Source: a virus. From it: a stretch of DNA of 64,000 nt. This document shows, piece by piece, positions 25,081-63,745 of this stretch. A program made the translations under genes and the position numbers. Each line of letters begins with the position of its first letter. Within the stretch, counting starts at the first letter, position 1. Under the pieces are notes generated by a model that ran no database searches, was not told the DNA's origin, and worked only from the letters and a program-made list of their open reading frames with translations. Location of the stretch: the IMG/VR virus record IMGVR_UViG_3300042545_001167, positions 52,710 to 116,709 of that record; one strand, 5' to 3'.

Positions 25081-25272
25081 ATGCCAAGAGAGTGGAATAC
25101 TCCCAAACGTGAGTGTTGGAATGCTCCGATTCATAACATTCTAAAAGCAATAGACAATCACACTCAAGAATACTTCAAGAGTGGTGATGTTTGGCATCTA
25201 GAAAAAGCAGATATGCTAAGGAAATATCTACACGAACTTAAGACTTGGATACATAAAGAAGAAGGAAGATGA
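25081..25272 (+). CDS. Hypothetical protein
   Basis: 63 aa, GAGG RBS. Confidence 0.6.
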   Translation: MPREWNTPKRECWNAPIHNILKAIDNHTQEYFKSGDVWHLEKADMLRKYLHELKTWIHKEEGR

Positions 25273-25335
25273 AAAAATTATTCTTAATTGGTCTATTAAT
25301 TATAAGATTGATTACCAATGATGGAGTATTTTTAA

Positions 25336-25656
25336 ATGCCAGAAGAATACCACCAAGAAAACAATTCCCCGAAATCATCAGATTCATCAGAAGACCAGCC
25401 AAAAAAGGTAGGAAAAAATTTTCGTACTTTAGATAAACTTATTGCGTCTTTAGTGATATGTACCTTAGGATATATTGGAGTTACTTTTTTAAATTGTAAC
25501 TTTATGGTTCCAGGTTCACTGGAAAGAGCAGATGCTTTAGGTGGTTTAGTAAATCCCCCACCATTAGATTGCAAAGAATCTGAAAGTAGAGCATACAATG
25601 CATTGTTTACTCTACTCACTGCTCTGTTAGGTCTTAAAGCGAAGATGGAAGATTAA
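25336..25656 (+). CDS. Two-TM membrane protein, possible holin
   Basis: Two hydrophobic helices; convergent with the lysozyme gene. Confidence 0.4.
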   Translation: MPEEYHQENNSPKSSDSSEDQPKKVGKNFRTLDKLIASLVICTLGYIGVTFLNCNFMVPGSLERADALGGLVNPPPLDCKESESRAYNALFTLLTALLGLKAKMED

Positions 25657-26135
25657 GATACCCAGAGGTTCCCTTCCGCTTTTCTGCGTCTCGCTAATCC
25701 TGCCTCTACATTGCTACCAGGATTGCGGTAGAGATATAAAGCATCTGGAACTAAATTCCACTCTTTATTCTTCAATCTGCTCGTGATAGTATTAAACCCA
25801 CCAGCACCATAGAAATCAGCACCGAGATTGTAAGCAAAACTGAGAAGTGCTCCACGTTGATTATCATTCATTTCATTCCAATAAGGTATCTTTTGCAAAG
25901 AGGGTAGAAATCTATTTTCAACATCAAATAGCAATAAACTATCAGCATATTTTTGAGTAATAGTTCTTCCCATCTTAAAATAAGAACCATTAAAATCTCT
26001 AGTGCTTCCCCATCCTATTGTGATAGGAGGACCGCCAGTTTTTGGATCTGGATAGGCATTTAAATGACATCCCTCAAATTCTTTGATTAAATCAACACCA
26101 CATTGAGGGACTTTTAACTGTGATGTTGATTCTAC
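25653..26135 (-). CDS. GH24 phage lysozyme domain; lacks own start upstream of catalytic Glu, probably made by -1 frameshift from the upstream ORF
   Basis: Open frame VESTSQLKVPQCGVDLIKEFEGCHLNAYPDPKTGGPPITIGWGST...ALLSFAYNLG...GLARRRKAE; TGA at 26145-26147 closes the frame upstream. Confidence 0.85.
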   Translation of the reverse strand, partial: VESTSQLKVPQCGVDLIKEFEGCHLNAYPDPKTGGPPITIGWGSTRDFNGSYFKMGRTITQKYADSLLLFDVENRFLPSLQKIPYWNEMNDNQRGALLSFAYNLGADFYGAGGFNTITSRLKNKEWNLVPDALYLYRNPGSNVEAGLARRRKAEGNLWVS

Positions 26136-26833
26136 TTTTTTACATCAAAGATTCTACCCCATCCAGTTTTATCTTTACCATTTTCCAACCAACGATAAGT
26201 CAAATCAGACTTCTTATATACAGCACCTTTACCATTTGTTACTGGTCCAGTATATCCATCGTTCAGAGAACCGTAAGGATCATTTACAACATAGTCTTCA
26301 CCTTTCTTACCAATCACTACAACCATGTGCCCACCAGAAGGTGCAGATAGAGTACCGCGATGATAAATCCCGATAACAACAGGTCTCCCAGCGGCAAGCT
26401 CACGATCAAGATCAGAAAACCCAAGATTGTAACTAAAGTGTGACTTAACTCCATAACCATCCAAAACTTTTGTTTGGACAGAGTGATCAGTTGTATCACC
26501 AACTGCAAAGACTTTTTGGACGTAGGCGTCATCGCCCTTTGCTCCCTGAAGAGTTCCTGGTTTAAAGTACTCTAAACACATCGCACAAGAAGATGAATTA
26601 CAGGTTCTCTGTGCGTCTCTGTAATTATCTGTTTGTGGGAAATAAGGAACATTAAGAATTCCAGGAATTACTGGTTCTAATTTTGTTCTAAAAATTTTTA
26701 CCCAATTTGAAGTATCCTCAATCAAATCTGGATTCTTAATCGCAAGATCAACTTCAAGTTGTTCTACTGCAGCAACGTGCTTTGGATTCTTTGGATCGTA
26801 GTATTGAAAGAAGTTATGAAGATCTACTCTCAT
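26132..26833 (-). CDS. C39-like cysteine peptidase (endolysin N-terminal part)
   Basis: LNVPYFPQTDN...CNSSSCAM...GGHMVVVIG...VVNDPYG. Confidence 0.85.
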   Translation of the reverse strand: MRVDLHNFFQYYDPKNPKHVAAVEQLEVDLAIKNPDLIEDTSNWVKIFRTKLEPVIPGILNVPYFPQTDNYRDAQRTCNSSSCAMCLEYFKPGTLQGAKGDDAYVQKVFAVGDTTDHSVQTKVLDGYGVKSHFSYNLGFSDLDRELAAGRPVVIGIYHRGTLSAPSGGHMVVVIGKKGEDYVVNDPYGSLNDGYTGPVTNGKGAVYKKSDLTYRWLENGKDKTGWGRIFDVKK

Positions 26834-26864
26834 TGTTCCTAACCGTTCAGTAAATCTATTTATT

Positions 26865-26889
26865 AAAAAAGGAGGGATAAACCCTCCTT
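26865..26889 (-). terminator. Intrinsic terminator after peroxiredoxin
   Basis: AAGGAGGG-loop-CCCTCC followed by T6 on - strand. Confidence 0.7.
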
Positions 26890-26893
26890 CTCA

Positions 26894-27421
26894 TCAGACC
26901 AATTCTTCTTCTAGAATAGTAGATTTAATATAACTATAGACATTTTCGGGAGTAGTCTCTTCATAAGGATCAGAGTCAGCATTATCACGCTGTCCTGCTT
27001 CAACAAACAGTTTTTCAATAATACCTTTGTCTACCACAGCAGCGTAACGCCAAGAACGCTCACCGAAGCCAAGATTTGACTTGCTAACGAGCATACCCAT
27101 TGAACGGGTGAAGTATGCATTTCCATCGGGAATCAGTTTTACGTTTTGAATATTTTGATCTTGTGCCCAAGAATTCATCACAAAACCATCATTAACAGAG
27201 ATGCAGTAAATAGCATCAATACCCAGTGCTTGAAACTCTCCAAACTTTTCCTCAAATCCAGGAAGTTGATATGCAGAGCAAGTAGGAGTAAATGCCCCAG
27301 GCAGTGAGAAAATCACAACACGCTTACCATCAAAAAGTTCTGAGGATGTACGAATTACGAATTCTCCAGATTCACGAAATACGAATTGGACTTGTGGAAC
27401 TTGATAACCTTCTTTACGCAT
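26894..27421 (-). CDS. Peroxiredoxin (Prx5/type II)
   Basis: SLPGAFTPTCS, SVNDGFVM, PDGN, GFGERSWRY; GGAGG RBS before MRKEGY. Confidence 0.92.
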   Translation of the reverse strand: MRKEGYQVPQVQFVFRESGEFVIRTSSELFDGKRVVIFSLPGAFTPTCSAYQLPGFEEKFGEFQALGIDAIYCISVNDGFVMNSWAQDQNIQNVKLIPDGNAYFTRSMGMLVSKSNLGFGERSWRYAAVVDKGIIEKLFVEAGQRDNADSDPYEETTPENVYSYIKSTILEEELV

Positions 27422-27432
27422 TTTAACCTCCA

Positions 27433-27552
27433 TCAGAATACGCCAGGGATGATTTGACCAGTAGTGGCGTAAGTACCCATTGCAACGATAACTCCGATCA
27501 TTGCTGCCCAACCGTTAATACGTTCGGCACGTTCAGTAAAAAGATTTTTCAT
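27433..27552 (-). CDS. hli: High-light inducible protein (39 aa; not in ORF track)
   Basis: MKNLFTERAERINGWAAMIGVIVAMGTYATTGQIIPGVF. Confidence 0.9.
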   Translation of the reverse strand: MKNLFTERAERINGWAAMIGVIVAMGTYATTGQIIPGVF

Positions 27553-46011: not shown

Positions 46012-46087
46012 TGTTTTGAATGTTGACCTTGTTATTATAGGAAAAATAGTGTTGAAAGTCAAGTAGGACAGTTCGGTTTCTGTCCAG

Positions 46088-46160
46088 TGCTGGTTGCGAG
46101 GATCGAACTCGCCTCCCATCGATTATGAGTCGATTGCATTCGCCAGATTGCTAAACCAGC
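46088..46160 (-). tRNA. tRNA-Met/Ile2 (CAT), elongator type
   Basis: Cloverleaf, loop CTCATAA, GTTCGA. Confidence 0.88.
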
Positions 46161-46183
46161 ATTCGCTATTCGCAAATAGCGAA

Positions 46184-46255
46184 TGGGGATACTGGGAGTT
46201 GAACCCAGACTAAGCCCTTATAAGGAGCCCGCTCTAACCATTAAGCTATACCCCC
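46184..46255 (-). tRNA. tRNA-Ile (TAT)
   Basis: Cloverleaf, loop CTTATAA. Confidence 0.88.
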
Positions 46256-46294
46256 ATAAATCCAGGTCTATTCTAGAGGACCTGGAACTCTTTG

Positions 46295-46528
46295 TCAAGA
46301 ACCTTCTTCGTGATCGGTGTGGATTTTAACTATATCATCAATATCCACATTTGCGTCTTCACATATCTGCACAACTTCATTGTAAGGAATCATAACTACA
46401 TTTCCATGCTCACTTGTTATGATAAATGATTCTCCTTTTTCAACTCTATCTATCAAGTTATCAAAATCTGCTTGAAACTCTTCTACTGTAAATGATTTAA
46501 GTTCGTTAATTTCTTGATACATTTTCAT
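46295..46528 (-). CDS. Phd/YefM-like antitoxin-domain protein
   Basis: FTVEEFQADFDNLIDRVEKGESFIITSEHGNVVMIPY. Confidence 0.7.
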   Translation of the reverse strand: MKMYQEINELKSFTVEEFQADFDNLIDRVEKGESFIITSEHGNVVMIPYNEVVQICEDANVDIDDIVKIHTDHEEGS

Positions 46529-46546
46529 AAAGTCAATTTTTATGAG

Positions 46547-46620
46547 TCGGAATGACAGGATTCGAACCTGCGGCATCTCGCTCCCAAAGCGAGTGCTCTA
46601 CCAAACTGAGCTACATTCCG
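46547..46620 (-). tRNA. tRNA-Pro (TGG)
   Basis: Cloverleaf, loop TTTGGGA. Confidence 0.93.
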
Positions 46621-47154
46621 TTACTTTTGTTTTGTTTGATGTATAACCATTATACCCAAGACTGGAACCATTGTCAAGAGGTAGCAAAGGATAAAAAGCG
46701 AAACCTGATTATCCAGAATTAAATGAGCAAAGTCTCTCATCGTACTCTATCTATAACAGCAAGAACCCCATGGGCATAGAAGAAAAGCAAAACCGAACCG
46801 ATTGTTGCTGATATTATTGTAGCAGTTTTATTGTGTTTGTCAATTGCTTTTGCAACTGATTGGTCAATCATTTCCTGTACTTCATCAGGAGTCATTTTTC
46901 ATCTCCAAGAAATTTTGCAAGAGGGTCGCGACCTGTCTTAATAATTTCACAGGCTCTACGATAAAACATATTACTGGTATTACCAGATTTCTCAAAAGTT
47001 TCTTTTATTTTTACCCAGTTATCAAACGTATGTTCGTCCATGGGTTTTCTGCGTAGTACTATTATATAATAGTTTTCAAATTTTGAATGTCAATGAAATG
47101 TGTCCATTATGTAACACTACTGAAGAAATTATTAAATTTTGGTATCAATTATAG

Positions 47155-47239
47155 CGGAGAGGGTCGGATTCGAACCCACGGAAGCTTTCACTTCGGCAGT
47201 TTTCAAGACTGCTGCCTTAAACCACTCGGCCACCTCTCC
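47155..47239 (-). tRNA. tRNA-Ser (TGA)
   Basis: Long variable arm, loop CTTGAAA. Confidence 0.93.
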
Positions 47240-47249
47240 AATATGAGAT

Positions 47250-47501
47250 TCAACGAATCTCGAAGTCCAGTTTACGAACTTTACGTTGTCTTCTTGCTTC
47301 CTGAAAAGCAAGATCTTGATTAGAAAGCACATTTGATTTTTGTGTTTCCTTTAATGAGTTTAGCATAACAACTCTAGATAAGTCAAGTGCTGAAATCTTA
47401 TCTCCGCGAATTGTTGCCATATTTGAACATCCACAAGTTATAGTTTTTGTTGGGTGTCCAAGTAATTCTTTGTTACAATCTTTGCATCTTATTGATAACA
47501 T
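47250..47501 (-). CDS. Small Cys-rich hypothetical protein
   Basis: CKDC...CGC. Confidence 0.6.
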   Translation of the reverse strand: MLSIRCKDCNKELLGHPTKTITCGCSNMATIRGDKISALDLSRVVMLNSLKETQKSNVLSNQDLAFQEARRQRKVRKLDFEIR

Positions 47502-47516
47502 TGTTCTTCATCCTAT

Positions 47517-47951
47517 TCACTGTAAATGTGATCTTAACATCCATACAAATTTGCCGTGGGATTCCATTAAGTCTTGAACCAAATTAGCAGTTGCATATTG
47601 CTTTTGTGCTTCTGATTCTTCCGAAATCTCTACCATTAACTCACAAAACTTGATGTTATTATCAAGAAGTTCCTGAAGCATTTCTCCTGCTCCTGTTGAA
47701 CTTGCTGCCTCTTTGATTTGAGTTACCTCAAGCATTCTTGAGAGAGAACTTAAAGGTTTAATATTTAGATATCTCATATGCTCAGAGAGTCTATCAACCT
47801 CTTCAAACATAGTCTCATACTGTCCGCCAAAGAGTTGATGAAGTTGAGTAAAATCACTTCCTACAACATTCCAGTGAAATGCCCAAGTTTTATGAAATAA
47901 AACAAAAAGTGACGATTGAGCATCACTTAAGAGTTTAAACAATTTCTCCAT
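47517..47951 (-). CDS. dps: Dps family ferritin-like DNA protection protein
   Basis: FHWNVVGSDFTQLH...F...Y...DRLSE; C-terminal KFVWMLRS. Confidence 0.92.
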   Translation of the reverse strand: MEKLFKLLSDAQSSLFVLFHKTWAFHWNVVGSDFTQLHQLFGGQYETMFEEVDRLSEHMRYLNIKPLSSLSRMLEVTQIKEAASSTGAGEMLQELLDNNIKFCELMVEISEESEAQKQYATANLVQDLMESHGKFVWMLRSHLQ

Positions 47952-47978
47952 TATACTTTTTTTCAAGTATTTATGCAA

Positions 47979-48051
47979 TGGGCAATCGCAGATTCGAACT
48001 GCGGACTTTCTGCGTGTAAAGCAGACACTCTAACCGCTGAGTTAATCGCCC
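47979..48051 (-). tRNA. tRNA-Val (TAC)
   Basis: Cloverleaf, loop TTTACAC. Confidence 0.93.
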
Positions 48052-48074
48052 GAAAGGTGATGAGTGGCCACCAC

Positions 48075-48178
48075 CCGCAGAAGACACTTTCTGCAATTTC
48101 ACCGTGTTAGAGAACGGTGAATAAGAGAAAACACCAAACCTTATTCTTCCTGTTTTCAGGAACGCACCAAATGGGTTG
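48075..48178 (-). ncRNA. wcaG-like structured RNA
   Basis: Two TTTGGTG motifs, each followed by stems (TTCCTG/CAGGAA; GAATAAG/CTTATTC); name from recollection. Confidence 0.5.
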
Positions 48179-48257
48179 GGAGACTCTAGAGATTTTACCT
48201 CCGAAGTTTGTCCAGCATTTTCAATTTGAAAGAATCAGACATTTCCAATCCTTCCAA

Positions 48258-48329
48258 CTCCCCCGACAAGATTCGAACTTGTGACCTGGAAATTAACAGT
48301 TTCTCGCGCTACCGCTGCGCCACAGGGGA
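48258..48329 (-). tRNA. tRNA-Asn (GTT)
   Basis: Cloverleaf, loop CTGTTAA. Confidence 0.92.
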
Positions 48330-48350
48330 ATAAAGAACCCGAAGGTTCAG

Positions 48351-48422
48351 AGCGGAGTATCGGAATCGAACCGACGACATCTAACTTGGAAGGATAGCGT
48401 TCTACCGCTGAACTAACTCCGC
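48351..48422 (-). tRNA. tRNA-Gly (TCC)
   Basis: Cloverleaf, loop CTTCCAA. Confidence 0.92.
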
Positions 48423-48462
48423 TTATAAGACAATCATAAACTATTTTAGTTTGATTGTCAAG

Positions 48463-48544
48463 TGTCGATGAAAGGACTTGAACCTTCACAGATTAATCTA
48501 CTGGAACCTAAACCCAGCGCGTCTACCAATTCCGCCACATCGAC
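48463..48544 (-). tRNA. tRNA-Leu (TAG)
   Basis: Long variable arm, loop TTTAGGT. Confidence 0.92.
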
Positions 48545-48639
48545 TTGATGGATTAAGTGTGATATACCTCATAAGGGTATAACAGTGACTTAACCTCTAT
48601 CACTTTTATATAGTAACAGATTCTTATGAATCTGTCAAG

Positions 48640-48713
48640 CGTCCTTTGAGAGATTCGAACTCCCGACACATAGGTTCGTAGCCTACTGCTCTGCTCCACT
48701 GAGCTAAAAGGAC
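48640..48713 (-). tRNA. tRNA-Arg (ACG)
   Basis: Cloverleaf, loop CTACGAA. Confidence 0.92.
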
Positions 48714-48716
48714 AAA

Positions 48717-48788
48717 TTCTGAGAGTAGGATTCGAACCCACGAATGGCGGGACCAAAACCCGCTGCCTTACCACTTGGCGACCTCAGA
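48717..48788 (-). tRNA. tRNA-Gln (TTG)
   Basis: Cloverleaf, loop TTTTGGT. Confidence 0.92.
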
Positions 48789-48860
48789 AGCCCTCAGTCG
48801 GATTTGAACCAACGACCTACTCATTACTAGTGAGTTGCTCTACCACTGAGCTATAAGGGC
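48789..48860 (-). tRNA. tRNA-Thr (AGT)
   Basis: Stem ACTCA/TGAGT, loop CTAGTAA. Confidence 0.9.
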
Positions 48861-48862
48861 GG

Positions 48863-48933
48863 GGTGCCGTATGGGAATTGAACCCATCTAGTCGGTTCCA
48901 CAAACCGATGCCTTACCACTAGGCTAACGACAC
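48863..48933 (-). tRNA. tRNA-His (GTG)
   Basis: Cloverleaf, loop TTGTGGA. Confidence 0.9.
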
Positions 48934-48934
48934 A

Positions 48935-49017
48935 CGGAAGATGTTGGATTCGAACCAACGGAGGTGTTACCCTCACGGTTTAGCAAACCGCTGCATTAAC
49001 CGCTCTGCCAATCTTCC
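48935..49017 (-). tRNA. tRNA-Ser (GCT)
   Basis: Long variable arm, loop TTGCTAA. Confidence 0.92.
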
Positions 49018-49019
49018 AA

Positions 49020-49092
49020 TGGAAACAACTGGACTCGAACCAGTGGTCTTTCGATTATCAGTCGAATGCTTTACCAACTAAGCTATGTTTCC
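49020..49092 (-). tRNA. tRNA-Ile (GAT)
   Basis: Cloverleaf, loop CTGATAA. Confidence 0.93.
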
Positions 49093-49096
49093 ATAG

Positions 49097-49168
49097 TATT
49101 CCTAACGGGATTCGAACCCGTGCTGCCACCTTGAAAGGGTGGTGACCTAACCGCTAGTCGATAGGAAC
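49097..49168 (-). tRNA. tRNA-Glu (TTC)
   Basis: Cloverleaf, loop CTTTCAA. Confidence 0.92.
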
Positions 49169-49235
49169 TTGATATGAAGGCAGGTGCGGTATCTCCTTTC
49201 GGTTCCCATGCTCCTTTTTCTTTCCTTACCTTCAA

Positions 49236-49309
49236 CGACCCATACGGGATTCGAACCCGTGATCTCCACCGTGACAGGGTGGCGTGATAGACCGCTACAC
49301 TAATGGGTC
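49236..49309 (-). tRNA. tRNA-Asp (GTC)
   Basis: Cloverleaf, loop CTGTCAC. Confidence 0.93.
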
Positions 49310-49313
49310 AAGG

Positions 49314-49395
49314 TGGGAGGAGCAGGATTCGAACCTGCGAAGGCAGAGCCGTCTGATTTACAGTCAGATTCCTTTAGCCACTCGGAAATCCTCCC
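49314..49395 (-). tRNA. tRNA-Tyr (GTA)
   Basis: Long variable arm, loop CTGTAAA. Confidence 0.93.
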
Positions 49396-49399
49396 ACGA

Positions 49400-49472
49400 T
49401 GGGTCTGGTGGGACTCGAACCCACGGTACGCTGGTTAAAAGCCAGATGCATTCGCCGCTATGCTACAAACCC
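49400..49472 (-). tRNA. tRNA-Lys (TTT)
   Basis: Cloverleaf, loop CTTTTAA. Confidence 0.93.
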
Positions 49473-49473
49473 A

Positions 49474-49890
49474 TTAAATAAGTCCAAAGTACTGGAGTCG
49501 TTTTCTATTACCATTTCCTTTATTGAGAGCCTTATAGTTCTCAGTCAAAGAGTGGCAGTTAGGACACAATACCCTTAAGTTTTCTTCCTTATTATTGGAA
49601 CAATCACCATCAATATGGTCTATCTCCAAAGGAGATTTTCCAGTAGATGGATTTATTTTATTCCAACCACAAGAAGAGCACTGATGATTGTTTTTTTCTA
49701 AAAGATATTCCCTAACACCAGATTTAAGTCTGTATCCAGCTTTAACACCAGTATTAGGATTTTCTTTCCAATCATCAATAACTTTTTTCTGCTGATACTT
49801 TTGTTGGCATTTGTTAGAGCAATACTTACCAGTCTTTTGGGATGGTCTGAAAGAAACCTCAATGCCACAAGTCAAACAGTTGGACTTCAT
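49474..49890 (-). CDS. HNH homing endonuclease at the head of the tRNA array
   Basis: CLTC..YCSNKC; CSSCG...LEIDHIDGD..NN..ENLRVLCPNCH. Confidence 0.9.
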   Translation of the reverse strand: MKSNCLTCGIEVSFRPSQKTGKYCSNKCQQKYQQKKVIDDWKENPNTGVKAGYRLKSGVREYLLEKNNHQCSSCGWNKINPSTGKSPLEIDHIDGDCSNNKEENLRVLCPNCHSLTENYKALNKGNGNRKRLQYFGLI

Positions 49891-50075
49891 TTTAGTTAGG
49901 TTAGAGTAGTTGTTATTATTTATTTTACTCTAACTTTACCAAAATGTAAAGTTATGATATAGGATAAATATTCGGTTGTCGATGTGCTGGTGGTCTCTCA
50001 ACCACCCTTTAAGAATACCACCGTTTGGTCTCTGGGGGGAGATTGGTGGGCACTTAGGAAACTGTCACAGGCAAT

Positions 50076-50109
50076 AAAAAAGAGGAGGAAACTTTTGGTT
50101 TCTCTCCCC
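50076..50109 (-). terminator. Intrinsic terminator of the putative attenuator
   Basis: GGGGAGAGAAAC-CAAAA-GTTTCCTCCTC-TTTTTT. Confidence 0.8.
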
Positions 50110-50135
50110 TGTCTTTTGCTTTTATGGATTACATC

Positions 50136-50234
50136 TTACATATGTCTTTCCATATTCGCAAACAGGGGAGTTCCCTCAATATGCCAATAGCGGCAATCAA
50201 GAGTACTAATCTGTTTGTTCATTTGGAAAGACAT
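50136..50234 (-). CDS. Putative attenuator leader peptide (32 aa; not in ORF track)
   Basis: MSFQMNKQISTLDCRYWHIEGTPLFANMERHM; AGG RBS-like; TATAAATA late promoter at 50256-50263. Confidence 0.65.
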   Translation of the reverse strand: MSFQMNKQISTLDCRYWHIEGTPLFANMERHM

Positions 50235-50288
50235 TGTTTTCGACCTAAGTGTGTTTATTTATAAGACTTTTTTTGTTAAAAAGTCTAA

Positions 50289-50362
50289 CGCCTCAGGTTG
50301 GATTCGAACCAACGGCTAACCGCTTAGAAGGCGGATACTCTAGTCCACTGAGTTACTGAGGC
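50289..50362 (-). tRNA. tRNA-Arg (TCT)
   Basis: Cloverleaf, loop CTTCTAA. Confidence 0.93.
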
Positions 50363-50367
50363 ATAAA

Positions 50368-52577: not shown

Positions 52578-53768
52578 TCATAGTTTGAATCCTGAGAAAG
52601 TATTTTTGGTAACATCCTGCTTAATGCCCCCTACAACATAAGATTCTACTTCAGTTTCCTGTGGAGCAACCTGAAGACCTTTGGAAGAAATCCAGTGTTG
52701 AGTCCAAGGAAGTGGATTATTATTAGCTGAGATATCATATTGTGGTTTTAGACCAATCGCTTTAAGTCTACGATTTGCAATCCATTCAACATATTGCTGA
52801 AGAAGTTTATCATTAAGTCCAATCATGCTTCCATCTTTGAACAGATAATCTGCCCATTTCTTTTCTTCATTTACCGCACGATCAAACATTTTATAGACCC
52901 ACTCTTCTTCTTCTTTTGCAATTTGTTGCATTTCAGGATCATCACCTTCTCTCCACTTATTCAGAATATTCTGAGTAAGTGCTAGGTGTTGATTTTCGTC
53001 TCTTGCGATGAGACTAATGATTTTAGCGGATCCTTCCATAAGCTTAAGTTCACCAAAGGCGAAACTACAAGCAAAACTAACGTAGAAGCGAATACCTTCA
53101 AGAATATTAACGTTTGCGACTGCTCTGTAAAGTTTTCGTTTGACATCATTGATTGTTTCTTTTGCGTATGAGACTCCCTCAAGTCTGTGCATCCAAGTAT
53201 CAGATACACCATACTGTTGTGCTGATTGAATAAAGTCATCATAAGACTCTGTAACGCTCTTAGCACGCTCTAGAATGCGGTTGTCGTTGATGATAGTATC
53301 AAATACCTCTGAAGGGTCCGAATAGATGTTTTTAATGATATAGGTATAGGAACGACTATGAATCATTTCCATAAAACCCCACACTTCCATACATGCTTCC
53401 AATTCAGGAAGTGAGCAATATGGAAGAAATGCCATACCAGGACCACGACCCTGAACACTATCAAGCATGATCTGATACTTCAGATTGGAAGTATAGATAT
53501 GCTTCTGTTCAGGACGAAGAGTTTGATAATCTCCACGATCCTTCTGGAGAGATACCTCTTCAGGTCTCCAGAAGTATCCTAGCTGCTGAGTTGTAAGTTT
53601 TTCAAAGATAGGATATTTGTATGAATCATATCTTTGAACTCCAAGAGGAGCACCAAAGAACATTGGTTGTTTTTTTCTATCAATGTTCTCGGTATTAAAA
53701 ACTGTCATTCCTTTGATTTGGGTTGGATTTTCTTCAACTGAAGAAATTTTAAACTGCACAGGATTCAC
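52578..53768 (-). CDS. nrdB: Ribonucleotide reductase class Ia beta subunit
   Basis: FWRPEEV, LDSVQG, EMIHSRSY, LEGIRFYVSF, RDENQH, APQETE. Confidence 0.97.
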   Translation of the reverse strand: MNPVQFKISSVEENPTQIKGMTVFNTENIDRKKQPMFFGAPLGVQRYDSYKYPIFEKLTTQQLGYFWRPEEVSLQKDRGDYQTLRPEQKHIYTSNLKYQIMLDSVQGRGPGMAFLPYCSLPELEACMEVWGFMEMIHSRSYTYIIKNIYSDPSEVFDTIINDNRILERAKSVTESYDDFIQSAQQYGVSDTWMHRLEGVSYAKETINDVKRKLYRAVANVNILEGIRFYVSFACSFAFGELKLMEGSAKIISLIARDENQHLALTQNILNKWREGDDPEMQQIAKEEEEWVYKMFDRAVNEEKKWADYLFKDGSMIGLNDKLLQQYVEWIANRRLKAIGLKPQYDISANNNPLPWTQHWISSKGLQVAPQETEVESYVVGGIKQDVTKNTFSGFKL

Positions 53769-63672: not shown

Positions 63673-63745
63673 TGGAGAATAGGAGACTCGAACTCCTGAC
63701 TTCCTGCTTGCAAAGCAGGCGCACTACCAACTGTGCTAATTCCCC
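63673..63745 (-). tRNA. tRNA-Ala (TGC)
   Basis: Cloverleaf, G3:U70, loop TTTGCAA. Confidence 0.93.

Follow-up and report, generated by a model that had tools for sequence, protein, structure and literature searches.

How does a phage make a complete lysozyme when its reading frame offers no start codon ahead of the active site? The question is raised by a lysis locus in a stretch of 64,000 nucleotides (nt), hereafter the window, which covers positions 52,710 to 116,709 of IMG/VR virus record IMGVR_UViG_3300042545_001167 and comes from a freshwater T4-like cyanophage with relatives among the Kyanoviridae. There a gene for a C39-like cysteine peptidase is followed, in the -1 frame, by a lysozyme of glycoside hydrolase family 24 (GH24). 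Comparison with related loci indicates that a programmed -1 frameshift very probably yields both the peptidase and a peptidase-muramidase fusion from this one locus, the lysozyme apparently being made only through a -1 slip at the end of the peptidase gene. Coordinates are positions in the window, and all recoding features lie on its minus strand (Table 1).

The peptidase open reading frame (ORF) ends GAT GTA AAA AAG TAG, with the slippery heptamer A AAA AAG at the place given in the original prediction, every coordinate of which, both stems included, was verified by direct reading of the minus strand. From G26135 the -1 frame begins VESTSQLKVPQCGVDLIKEFEGCHLNAYPD and stays open for 160 codons, overlapping the peptidase frame by 13 nt. 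As had been claimed, a TGA closes this frame just ahead of the heptamer, and neither ATG, GTG nor TTG occurs between that TGA and the codon of the catalytic Glu; the sole ORF listed for the frame starts at 25973, past the active site. By frequency alone the heptamer is at chance level (63 copies of AAAAAAG in the 116,709-base record versus 59 of a reversed control), so its significance rests on phase, position and conservation.

We propose that ribosomes would translate the 233-aa protein, consisting of an N-terminal domain and the C39-like peptidase, and that most of them would terminate at the TAG. A fraction would slip by -1 on A AAA AAG, both Lys-tRNAs re-pairing in tandem, and would then read GTA GAA and onwards, through a disordered linker, into the GH24 muramidase. 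The resulting product would have two activities, a junction peptide such as ...DVKKVESTSQLK and a length of 393 aa (233 + 160), near the approximately 390 aa first predicted. The slip would be promoted by a hairpin of 13-14 bp located 2-3 nt past the heptamer, the adjacent stop codon may also help, and in the sub-lineage of the window a second stem may convert the hairpin into an H-type pseudoknot.

Such a layout could also arise trivially, by a sequencing or assembly error in the homopolymer or by the recent breakage of a fused gene into a pseudogene, since one added A gives a plain in-frame fusion and in-frame fusions are known in relatives. Contigs from runs X11, X6 and X7, which belong to three studies, span 26135-26141 without inserted or missing letters, although X7, which matches the entire stretch almost exactly, may itself be what the window was derived from; X19 has a gap at 26093-26252 that leaves the site uncovered. 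The check was made on DNA contigs, which drop rare variants, and a minor subpopulation with seven A is possible. However, the same layout recurs in 91 loci from many samples, including the Sanger-era genome of S-PM2, and the lysozyme frame is intact, with Pfam scores well above the cut-off. An artefact or a pseudogene is therefore the least probable of the explanations considered here, and we give it hardly any credence.

Arrangement of the two genes in related phages

A blastn search of phage records matched 59 records, all of them Synechococcus phages, and two scans of IMG/VR, with the peptidase and then the lysozyme as the query, matched 595 and 593 relatives respectively, of which the best 80 of each were analysed. 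The resulting set of 167 loci comprises the window, six named phages and 160 IMG/VR loci; five loci without one of the partners within reach (L081, L085, L141, L149 and L162) were left out, and 162 were analysable. Some contigs came from both scans, and the unique 140-nt junctions number 67 with a heptamer, 15 with an ATGA overlap and 41 others. In 91 of the 162 loci an X XXY YYZ heptamer precedes the peptidase stop by 0-6 nt and the -1 frame encodes the lysozyme (all 91 are in phase by construction of the test), in 23 an AAATGA overlap gives the lysozyme its own ATG, without a heptamer, and in 48 the arrangement is of another kind (separate genes, five fusions in swapped order and two in the same order); as only the best 80 of each scan were taken, these fractions are not population frequencies, and as the loci are related, neither these counts nor the Mann-Whitney p value given below stand for independent samples. 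None of the 162 loci has an overlapping -1 lysozyme that lacks both a heptamer and a start of its own.

The heptamer is A AAA AAG in 90 of the 91 loci and T TTT TTT in one, and the stop codon abuts it in 84 loci, follows one codon later in 6 and two codons later in 1. Across the 67 unique junctions of this class, the first base of the heptamer belongs to a GTA codon in 36, to GCA in 28, to ATA in 2 and to GTT in 1 (the T-type), while the codon before that one is free to vary (GAT in 34, GAC in 14). The residue preceding Lys-Lys thus varies (V/A/I), yet the third-position A is fixed throughout the A-type, which argues for selection at the nucleotide level. The stop abuts the heptamer in 60 of these 67 junctions, and GTAGAA opens the -1 frame in 44.

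Among the named phages, S-PM2 reads GCA AAA AAG TAA and continues in the -1 frame into a lysozyme without a start. In S-CAM7 the junction is GTT TTT TTT CCA CAG TAG, the -1 lysozyme again has no start, and a hairpin of 13 bp with one bulge lies 5 nt downstream; T TTT TTT takes this position in two metagenomic relatives as well, and all three have a hairpin 5 nt downstream. S-SRM01 combines the heptamer with an ATG overlapping the stop, S-CREM1 has a single ORF in the order lysozyme then peptidase, and DSL-LC02 and DSL-LC03 encode peptidase and lysozyme as separate genes. The database record of S-PM2 annotates the lysozyme as a 72-aa "putative lysin" that starts at an internal ATG (L002, 2454-2672) and is devoid of the catalytic Glu, and that of S-CAM7 likewise carries a truncated "putative lysin" from an internal ATG (L006, 2254-2526), also without the catalytic Glu; the lysins annotated in these two records are 72-90 aa long.

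Ten loci carry a complete single-ORF fusion of peptidase to lysozyme (L129, L132, L169-L172 and L174-L177), and a further fusion (L173) is cut by the contig end. Eight of the ten, which are free of a heptamer and have the junction ...IFDAK-VEEKK..., are closer to the S-CAM7 peptidase than any other relatives except those of its own lineage. In an alignment of 39 rows the two frames of the window tile the fusions without a gap, K-VE on K-VE, so that the first -1 codons, GTA GAA (Val-Glu), align with the Val-Glu of the fusions. The existence of these colinear natural fusions implies that the predicted trans-frame product is a natural type of protein.

The remaining two complete fusions, L129 and L132 (around 982-1120; their contigs are also those of L193 and L192), stem from two samples and have several base differences between them. 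Both are in-frame fusions of 401 aa that keep the heptamer and the hairpin, and a -1 shift at their heptamer meets a TGA after one codon. Both types of product would therefore arise again, with the long one as the default. A different partner is found in L194/L201, one contig (L201, 938-1498, minus strand) in which GTA AAA AAG TAG is followed 6 nt downstream by a G+C-rich hairpin of 8 bp and the -1 frame enters a GH19-like domain (Glyco_hydro_19, PF00182, E-value 2e-5, 25.0 bits, just below the cut-off of 25.5). This GH19-like domain could also have a start of its own, at a GTG that lies in frame 32 codons downstream.

It could be argued that the lysozyme is translated separately, by reinitiation after the TAG or from a non-canonical start such as an in-frame ATC, and that both the hairpin and the Lys-Lys codons are there for other purposes. 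The 23 loci with an ATGA overlap do imply that relatives use translational coupling, GTGA, TTGA or ATGA coincides with the stop in a few heptamer loci (L013, L015, L012, L017, L001 and L160), and the window itself has an in-frame ATC at Ile17, four codons before the catalytic Glu. A start at that ATC, however, would delete most of the helix preceding the catalytic Glu, of which free-standing relatives keep about 11 residues (L082, MTLKAGIDLIKKFEG), and 60 of the 91 heptamer loci have no ATG, GTG or TTG from the heptamer to the catalytic Glu. Separate translation also leaves unexplained the invariant third-position A and the existence of a second heptamer type, as well as the conservation of the Val-Glu codons at the junction in register with the in-frame fusions, and the hairpin described below is absent exactly where the lysozyme has its own ATG. 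We therefore regard separate translation of the lysozyme as improbable, if the strongest of the rivals.

The same fusion protein would be obtained if RNA polymerase slipped on the run of six A (eight T in S-CAM7) and added a base, so that part of the mRNA encoded an in-frame fusion. Homopolymer runs are a known substrate for this process, but efficient transcriptional slippage needs about 8-9 or more bases. Each of the 90 A-type loci has a run of six A, and none has a longer one. The run in S-CAM7 is 8 T long, and a precedent is dnaX of Thermus, as described in the accessible part of PMC5009743. Against this, conservation in a specific phase and an RNA structure linked to the heptamer are marks of ribosomal and not of polymerase slippage, and a transcriptional origin of the fusion seems to us very unlikely.

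RNA structure downstream of the heptamer

The first stem of the window, with 13 bp and one G-U pair, is present as originally described; RNAfold extends it to 14 bp, with a free energy (dG) of -17.7 kcal/mol and a z-score of -2.84, and 1 of 200 shuffled sequences is as good. For a comparison between classes of junction, the 75 nt after the site were folded and scored against dinucleotide shuffles (Table 2). The difference in structure is significant by the Mann-Whitney test (p 1e-11), a value that overstates independence as the sequences are related, and L001 and L160, the two with an ATG of their own, are among the heptamer junctions with the least structure. Downstream RNA structure accompanies the heptamer and does not accompany the ATGA junctions or the fusion junctions that are free of a heptamer.

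Table 2. Predicted folding of the 75 nt after the junction in the different classes of locus
Class	Unique sequences	Mean dG	Mean z	z < -2
Heptamer	71	-17.3	-2.40	50/71
ATGA overlap	15	-9.4	+0.06	0/15
Separate genes	34	-9.1	-0.81	7/34
In-frame fusions without heptamer	7	-15.9	-0.10	1/7

In the first data set the hairpin starts 0-10 nt past the heptamer in most cases. Its arms are wholly different between clades and still complementary (AGTTCTATTC/GAATAGAACT, GCCAACTAAT/ATTAGTTGGC and ATCTCCCCG/CGGGGCAGAT). An alignment of 25 sequences from the clade of the window has 89% of the cells of stem 1 paired and 4 of 12 pairs changed on both sides; one of these pairs is A-U in 15 sequences, G-C in 9 and G-U in 1, and unpaired in none. 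A search of Rfam at a permissive threshold returned no family at the site.

The original prediction also included a second stem, formed between the loop of stem 1 and a segment downstream, and spoke of a textbook H-type pseudoknot. The complementarity is there: stem 2 is an exact complement of 8 bp (9 counting a G-U), its duplex has an energy of -13.5 kcal/mol, and only 3 of 501 loop shuffles are as good (p about 0.006), leaving pseudoknot loops of 8, 0 and 12 nt in the window. Pairing of the loop with downstream sequence exceeds shuffles only in the sub-lineage of the window, where L010 reaches p 0.03 and four further loci (L007, L009, L023 and L026) reach p 0.002. In these four, stem 1 is reduced to 6-8 bp and stem 2 comprises 10-13 bp, GACATCCCTC with GAGGGATGTC. 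Two sister groups have a CCCTC/GAGGG core in common and lengthen it each in its own direction, which favors the view that stem 2 is under selection. The 3' arm, however, lies on the Phe-Glu-Gly codons and is constrained by the protein.

Covariation had been expected in both stems, and the alignment bears this out for stem 1, while the covariation of stem 2 is weak. In stem 2, 73% of the cells are paired and 1 of 13 pairs is changed on both sides, and 8 of the 25 relatives in the clade of the window read GAAGG, which leaves an uncompensated C-A mismatch. Stem 2 as a universal element of the family was rejected, other clades having loops of 5-10 nt and no loop-to-downstream pairing above shuffles. 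Thus, of the textbook pseudoknot, the first stem is well supported, whereas the second has almost no compensatory change and is broken in a third or so of the close relatives; likewise, of the heptamer and pseudoknot looked for in homologs, the heptamer is found in 91 of 162 loci, while other clades have plain hairpins. A pseudoknot is not a general feature of the family. It is plausible in the phage of the window and its sub-lineage, where from the sequences we judge the case for and against it to be evenly balanced.

Besides the behavior of stem 2 and the relatedness and selection of the loci, several observations weigh against a programmed frameshift and have to be set beside the evidence in its favor. 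A start-like codon (ATG, GTG or TTG) in the -1 frame does occur in 31 of the 91 heptamer loci, mostly as GTG or TTG inside a hairpin arm, with a few of these codons overlapping the stop as ATGA, GTGA or TTGA, and at these 31 loci separate initiation is conceivable. The spacer between heptamer and stem base is merely 2-3 nt in the window. Spacers between a slippery heptamer and its downstream structure usually measure 5-9 nt, so the basal A-U pairs must be open during decoding. A second Lys-tRNA of the host would lower slippage at AAG. Finally, the support for the trans-frame product is wholly comparative: we infer that slippage occurs, and how efficient it may be, from the observed sequence features, their conservation and covariation, the identities of the domains and the existence of natural fusions. 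The central claim, that one locus gives a peptidase and its -1 fusion, is nevertheless supported by the in-phase conservation of the heptamer including its synonymous third-position A, by the second heptamer type, by a covarying hairpin linked to the heptamer, by colinear in-frame fusions and by the absence of any indel at the A run in contigs of three runs, which speaks against a homopolymer error as the source of the frameshift.

Table 1. Features of the lysis locus and a tRNA gene of the window
Feature	Position	Strand	Basis
Peptidase ORF, 233 aa + TAG	26132..26833	-	ORF list, PF13529, phrog_3617, AlphaFold2 model, fold matches
Slippery heptamer A AAA AAG, zero-frame phase GTA AAA AAG (26143-26135)	26135..26141	-	sequence
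Zero-frame stop TAG, abutting the heptamer; its bases also lie within the -1 codons GTA GAA (Val-Glu)	26132..26134	-	sequence
TGA closing the -1 frame, just 5' of the heptamer	26145..26147	-	sequence
Stem 1, 5' arm, AATCAACATCACA	26119..26131	-	sequence, RNAfold, covariation
Stem 1, 3' arm, TGTGGTGTTGATT, on lysozyme codons C-G-V-D-L	26090..26102	-	sequence, RNAfold, covariation
Stem 2, 5' arm, TCCCTCAA, within the loop of stem 1 (candidate pseudoknot arm)	26103..26110	-	sequence, loop shuffles
Stem 2, 3' arm, TTGAGGGA, on catalytic-motif codons F-E-G	26070..26077	-	sequence, loop shuffles
GH24 lysozyme frame, -1 relative to the peptidase, 160 codons + stop (25655-25653)	25653..26135	-	PF00959, phrog_3617
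N-terminal helical domain, residues 1-52 (DLHNFF..NPKH..)	26678..26833	-	predicted homodimer interface
tRNA-Lys(UUU), context only, no demonstrated role in the mechanism	49398..49473	-	ARAGORN

Protein products and neighboring genes

Both enzymes have the identities first proposed for them, with profile matches above the cut-offs. Residues 60-187 of the zero-frame product match Peptidase_C39_2 (PF13529; E-value 1.1e-12, 49.2 bits, cut-off 24). The -1 frame encodes a complete GH24 lysozyme by its match to Phage_lysozyme (PF00959; E-value 1.2e-21, 77.7 bits, cut-off 22.3), and its translation contains the motif EFEG-x7-D (E-x8-D) ... TIGWG with the catalytic Glu, Asp and Thr. A single PHROG profile of 405 positions, phrog_3617, spans both halves, the peptidase aligning at positions 1-235 and the lysozyme at 243-404. 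The locus holds the only PF00959 match in the virus record, which is 53% complete, and from the PHROG "lysis" families and the annotations of database records we take the enzyme to be the putative endolysin of this phage.

A search of PDB sequences with the peptidase gave nothing meaningful (the best match, a ribosomal protein, has an E-value of 0.93), hence we turned to a search by fold. With a model of a whole fusion that search was dominated by lysozyme matches, and the peptidase was hence modelled separately with AlphaFold2, with a predicted local distance difference test score (pLDDT) of 83.8. The model resembles the C39 domains of PCAT1, ComA and 6mpz (template modelling (TM) score on the target 0.62-0.74), the C39-like protein 3erv from Bacillus anthracis, the pseudomurein endoisopeptidase PeiR and the gamma-glutamyl peptidase Alr0975 (E-value 6e-5), and Cys83, His169 and Asp185 are invariant in 26 sequences. 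By model and fold match, the protein is predicted to be a papain-fold, C39-like cysteine peptidase preceded by an N-terminal domain of about 52 aa. An AlphaFold model of the related L129 fusion (pLDDT 82.6) has two folded domains and a linker at residues 239-247 with pLDDT below 50, which coincides with the position of the recoding signal; the lysozyme half of this model matches GH24 endolysins (TM score on the target 0.75-0.82).

Modelled as a homodimer, the 233-aa protein obtained a score of 0.62 versus 0.01 for the best of 3 controls. Of 30 proteins solved as pairs of one chain, 20 attained that mark, as did 1 of 23 proteins solved as single chains; this calibration holds only roughly, since we supplied our own alignment. 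Contacts coincide between the runs by 86% or more, the partner has a pLDDT of 85 or higher, and the interface involves residues 1-52 and no others, so the model supports binding of two copies through the N-terminal domain. The separate lysozyme gene of DSL-LC03 starts with its own copy of this domain (MARIDLHNFFKFYDE; L004, 2276-2400), and similar starts are found in several other loci (class C). Together, the sharing of the domain and the predicted dimer suggest that the two enzymes are always joined, whether through a fusion, a frameshift or a dimerisation domain that they share. In many lysozymes of the ATGA class (L031, L061 and similar loci) the N-terminus is extended by about 45 aa (MTIKFIDA..NHKDL.HQN.AW.FLQ...), a stretch that may be a diverged copy of the same domain.

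We can go one step further, tentatively and with more doubt than confidence, and suggest from these models that the short and long products share the N-terminal domain to form mixed dimers, the efficiency of frameshifting setting the stoichiometry of an endolysin with two activities. If true, there would be four interchangeable ways to tie a peptidase to a glycosidase, namely an in-frame fusion, a -1 frameshift fusion, the truncating mirror frameshift, and separate genes that share the N-terminal domain. The frameshift cassette would then be a portable junction that accepts even a non-homologous GH19-like partner.

The phage does encode tRNA-Lys(UUU), confirmed by ARAGORN. Twenty tRNA genes lie on the minus strand (46087-50363 and 63673-63745 overall), nineteen of them in one cluster, which includes tRNA-Lys(UUU), tRNA-Ile(UAU) and tRNA-Met. 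In E. coli, according to the available portion of PMC5009743, slippage at AAG depends on tRNA-Lys(UUU), and in lambda the modification state of this tRNA shifts the gpG:gpGT ratio, according to the portion of PMC4810235 available to us. A coupling of lysis to the status of tRNA-Lys, as had been proposed for this locus, is speculation.

Convergent with the lysozyme and overlapping its stop is a small ORF of 106 aa (25336-25656, plus strand) with two hydrophobic stretches, which has a 110-aa counterpart beside the lysin in L201 (606-938, plus strand). The small ORFs beside the lysozyme gave no match in Pfam or PHROG; the 106-aa ORF might encode a membrane protein belonging to the lysis module and is a candidate holin gene. 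The upstream neighbor (26897-27511, minus strand) encodes a peroxiredoxin (phrog_2281, E-value 5e-70), and in DSL-LC02 and DSL-LC03 a peroxiredoxin gene is likewise located upstream of the peptidase gene, accompanied in those phages by ferredoxin and hli genes. By eye we noticed, between the peroxiredoxin gene and the start of the peptidase, a GGAGGG-TTTAT-CCCTCC hairpin followed by T6 (about 26867-26889, minus strand), which looks like an intrinsic terminator, though the terminator scan did not list it: our scan of 25200-27100 returned 0 terminators, and promoter-like sites at or below the level of shuffled sequences.

Implications and relation to known systems

The mechanism itself is classical. 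In contrast, a frameshift that attaches a catalytic domain to a lysis enzyme, and its spread across cyanomyoviruses, appear to be undescribed in the literature we searched. Our full-text search, which left subscription journals mostly outside its reach, found no description of such a frameshift in a lysis enzyme. The word "frameshift" does not occur in the available part of the survey of two-polypeptide endolysins (PMC9430671), and the 2016 recoding review by Atkins mentions neither endolysin, lysozyme nor cyanophage in its first 300,000 characters. The PRFect paper, in its accessible part, cites a 1994 paper on a lactococcal lysin as a case of frameshifting, which may be a precedent among lysins.

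The lysis genes of T4-like cyanophages are poorly understood. If the locus is taken to be a frameshift site, a full enzyme of two domains is regained, and many annotations would have to be corrected. For research on recoding, the family offers a rare natural series, in which fusion, frameshifting in either direction, a start-stop overlap or a shared domain links one and the same pair of proteins. A single homologous site here presents dozens of covarying hairpins, along with one lineage that is likely to have a pseudoknot. A fixed ratio of the peptidase alone to the bifunctional enzyme would hint at a regulated or multimeric lysin in abundant aquatic viruses.

Among known systems, dnaX of E. 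coli (tau/gamma) has the same A AAA AAG followed by a 3' stem-loop and likewise gives two products with a common N-terminal part. The shift in the window, however, leads to the longer product, while that in dnaX leads to the shorter one; moreover, in the window the stop abuts the heptamer, the spacer is shorter, no upstream Shine-Dalgarno-like stimulator has been shown, and the gene encodes a lysis enzyme. The direct analog of dnaX in the family is the L129/L132 pair, because there the shift leads to a near-immediate stop and a shorter product. As in gpG/gpGT of lambda and the frameshifts of other tail assembly chaperones, a -1 shift in a phage would add a C-terminal domain in a fixed ratio, and the lambda slippery site also includes a Lys codon; unlike the window, it is G GGA AAG, without a strong 3' structure, and its products are structural-assembly proteins and not enzymes.

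IS3-family elements such as IS911 and IS150 use A AAA AAG or a related heptamer, with a 3' hairpin or pseudoknot, to fuse OrfA and OrfB into a two-domain OrfAB enzyme, which in their case is a transposase rather than a lysis enzyme and has no sequence relation to the proteins described here. The candidate structure resembles the H-type pseudoknot of infectious bronchitis virus (IBV) in its long stem 1 (11 bp in IBV, 13 bp in the window) and its shorter loop-to-downstream stem 2, and IBV tolerates a connecting loop of 8 nt; the window differs in its bacterial setting and in a stem 2 that is without covariation support and absent in sister clades. Closest in outcome are the two-polypeptide endolysins Lys170, CTP1L and CD27L, which, according to the available part of PMC9430671, combine a full-length protein with a shorter product that shares a domain with it, the two assembling with each other, as is predicted only from a model for the dimer of the window. 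In those enzymes the shorter product arises from an in-frame internal start and the shared part is the C-terminal wall-binding domain, whereas in the window the N-terminal part would be shared and the two products would be generated by recoding.

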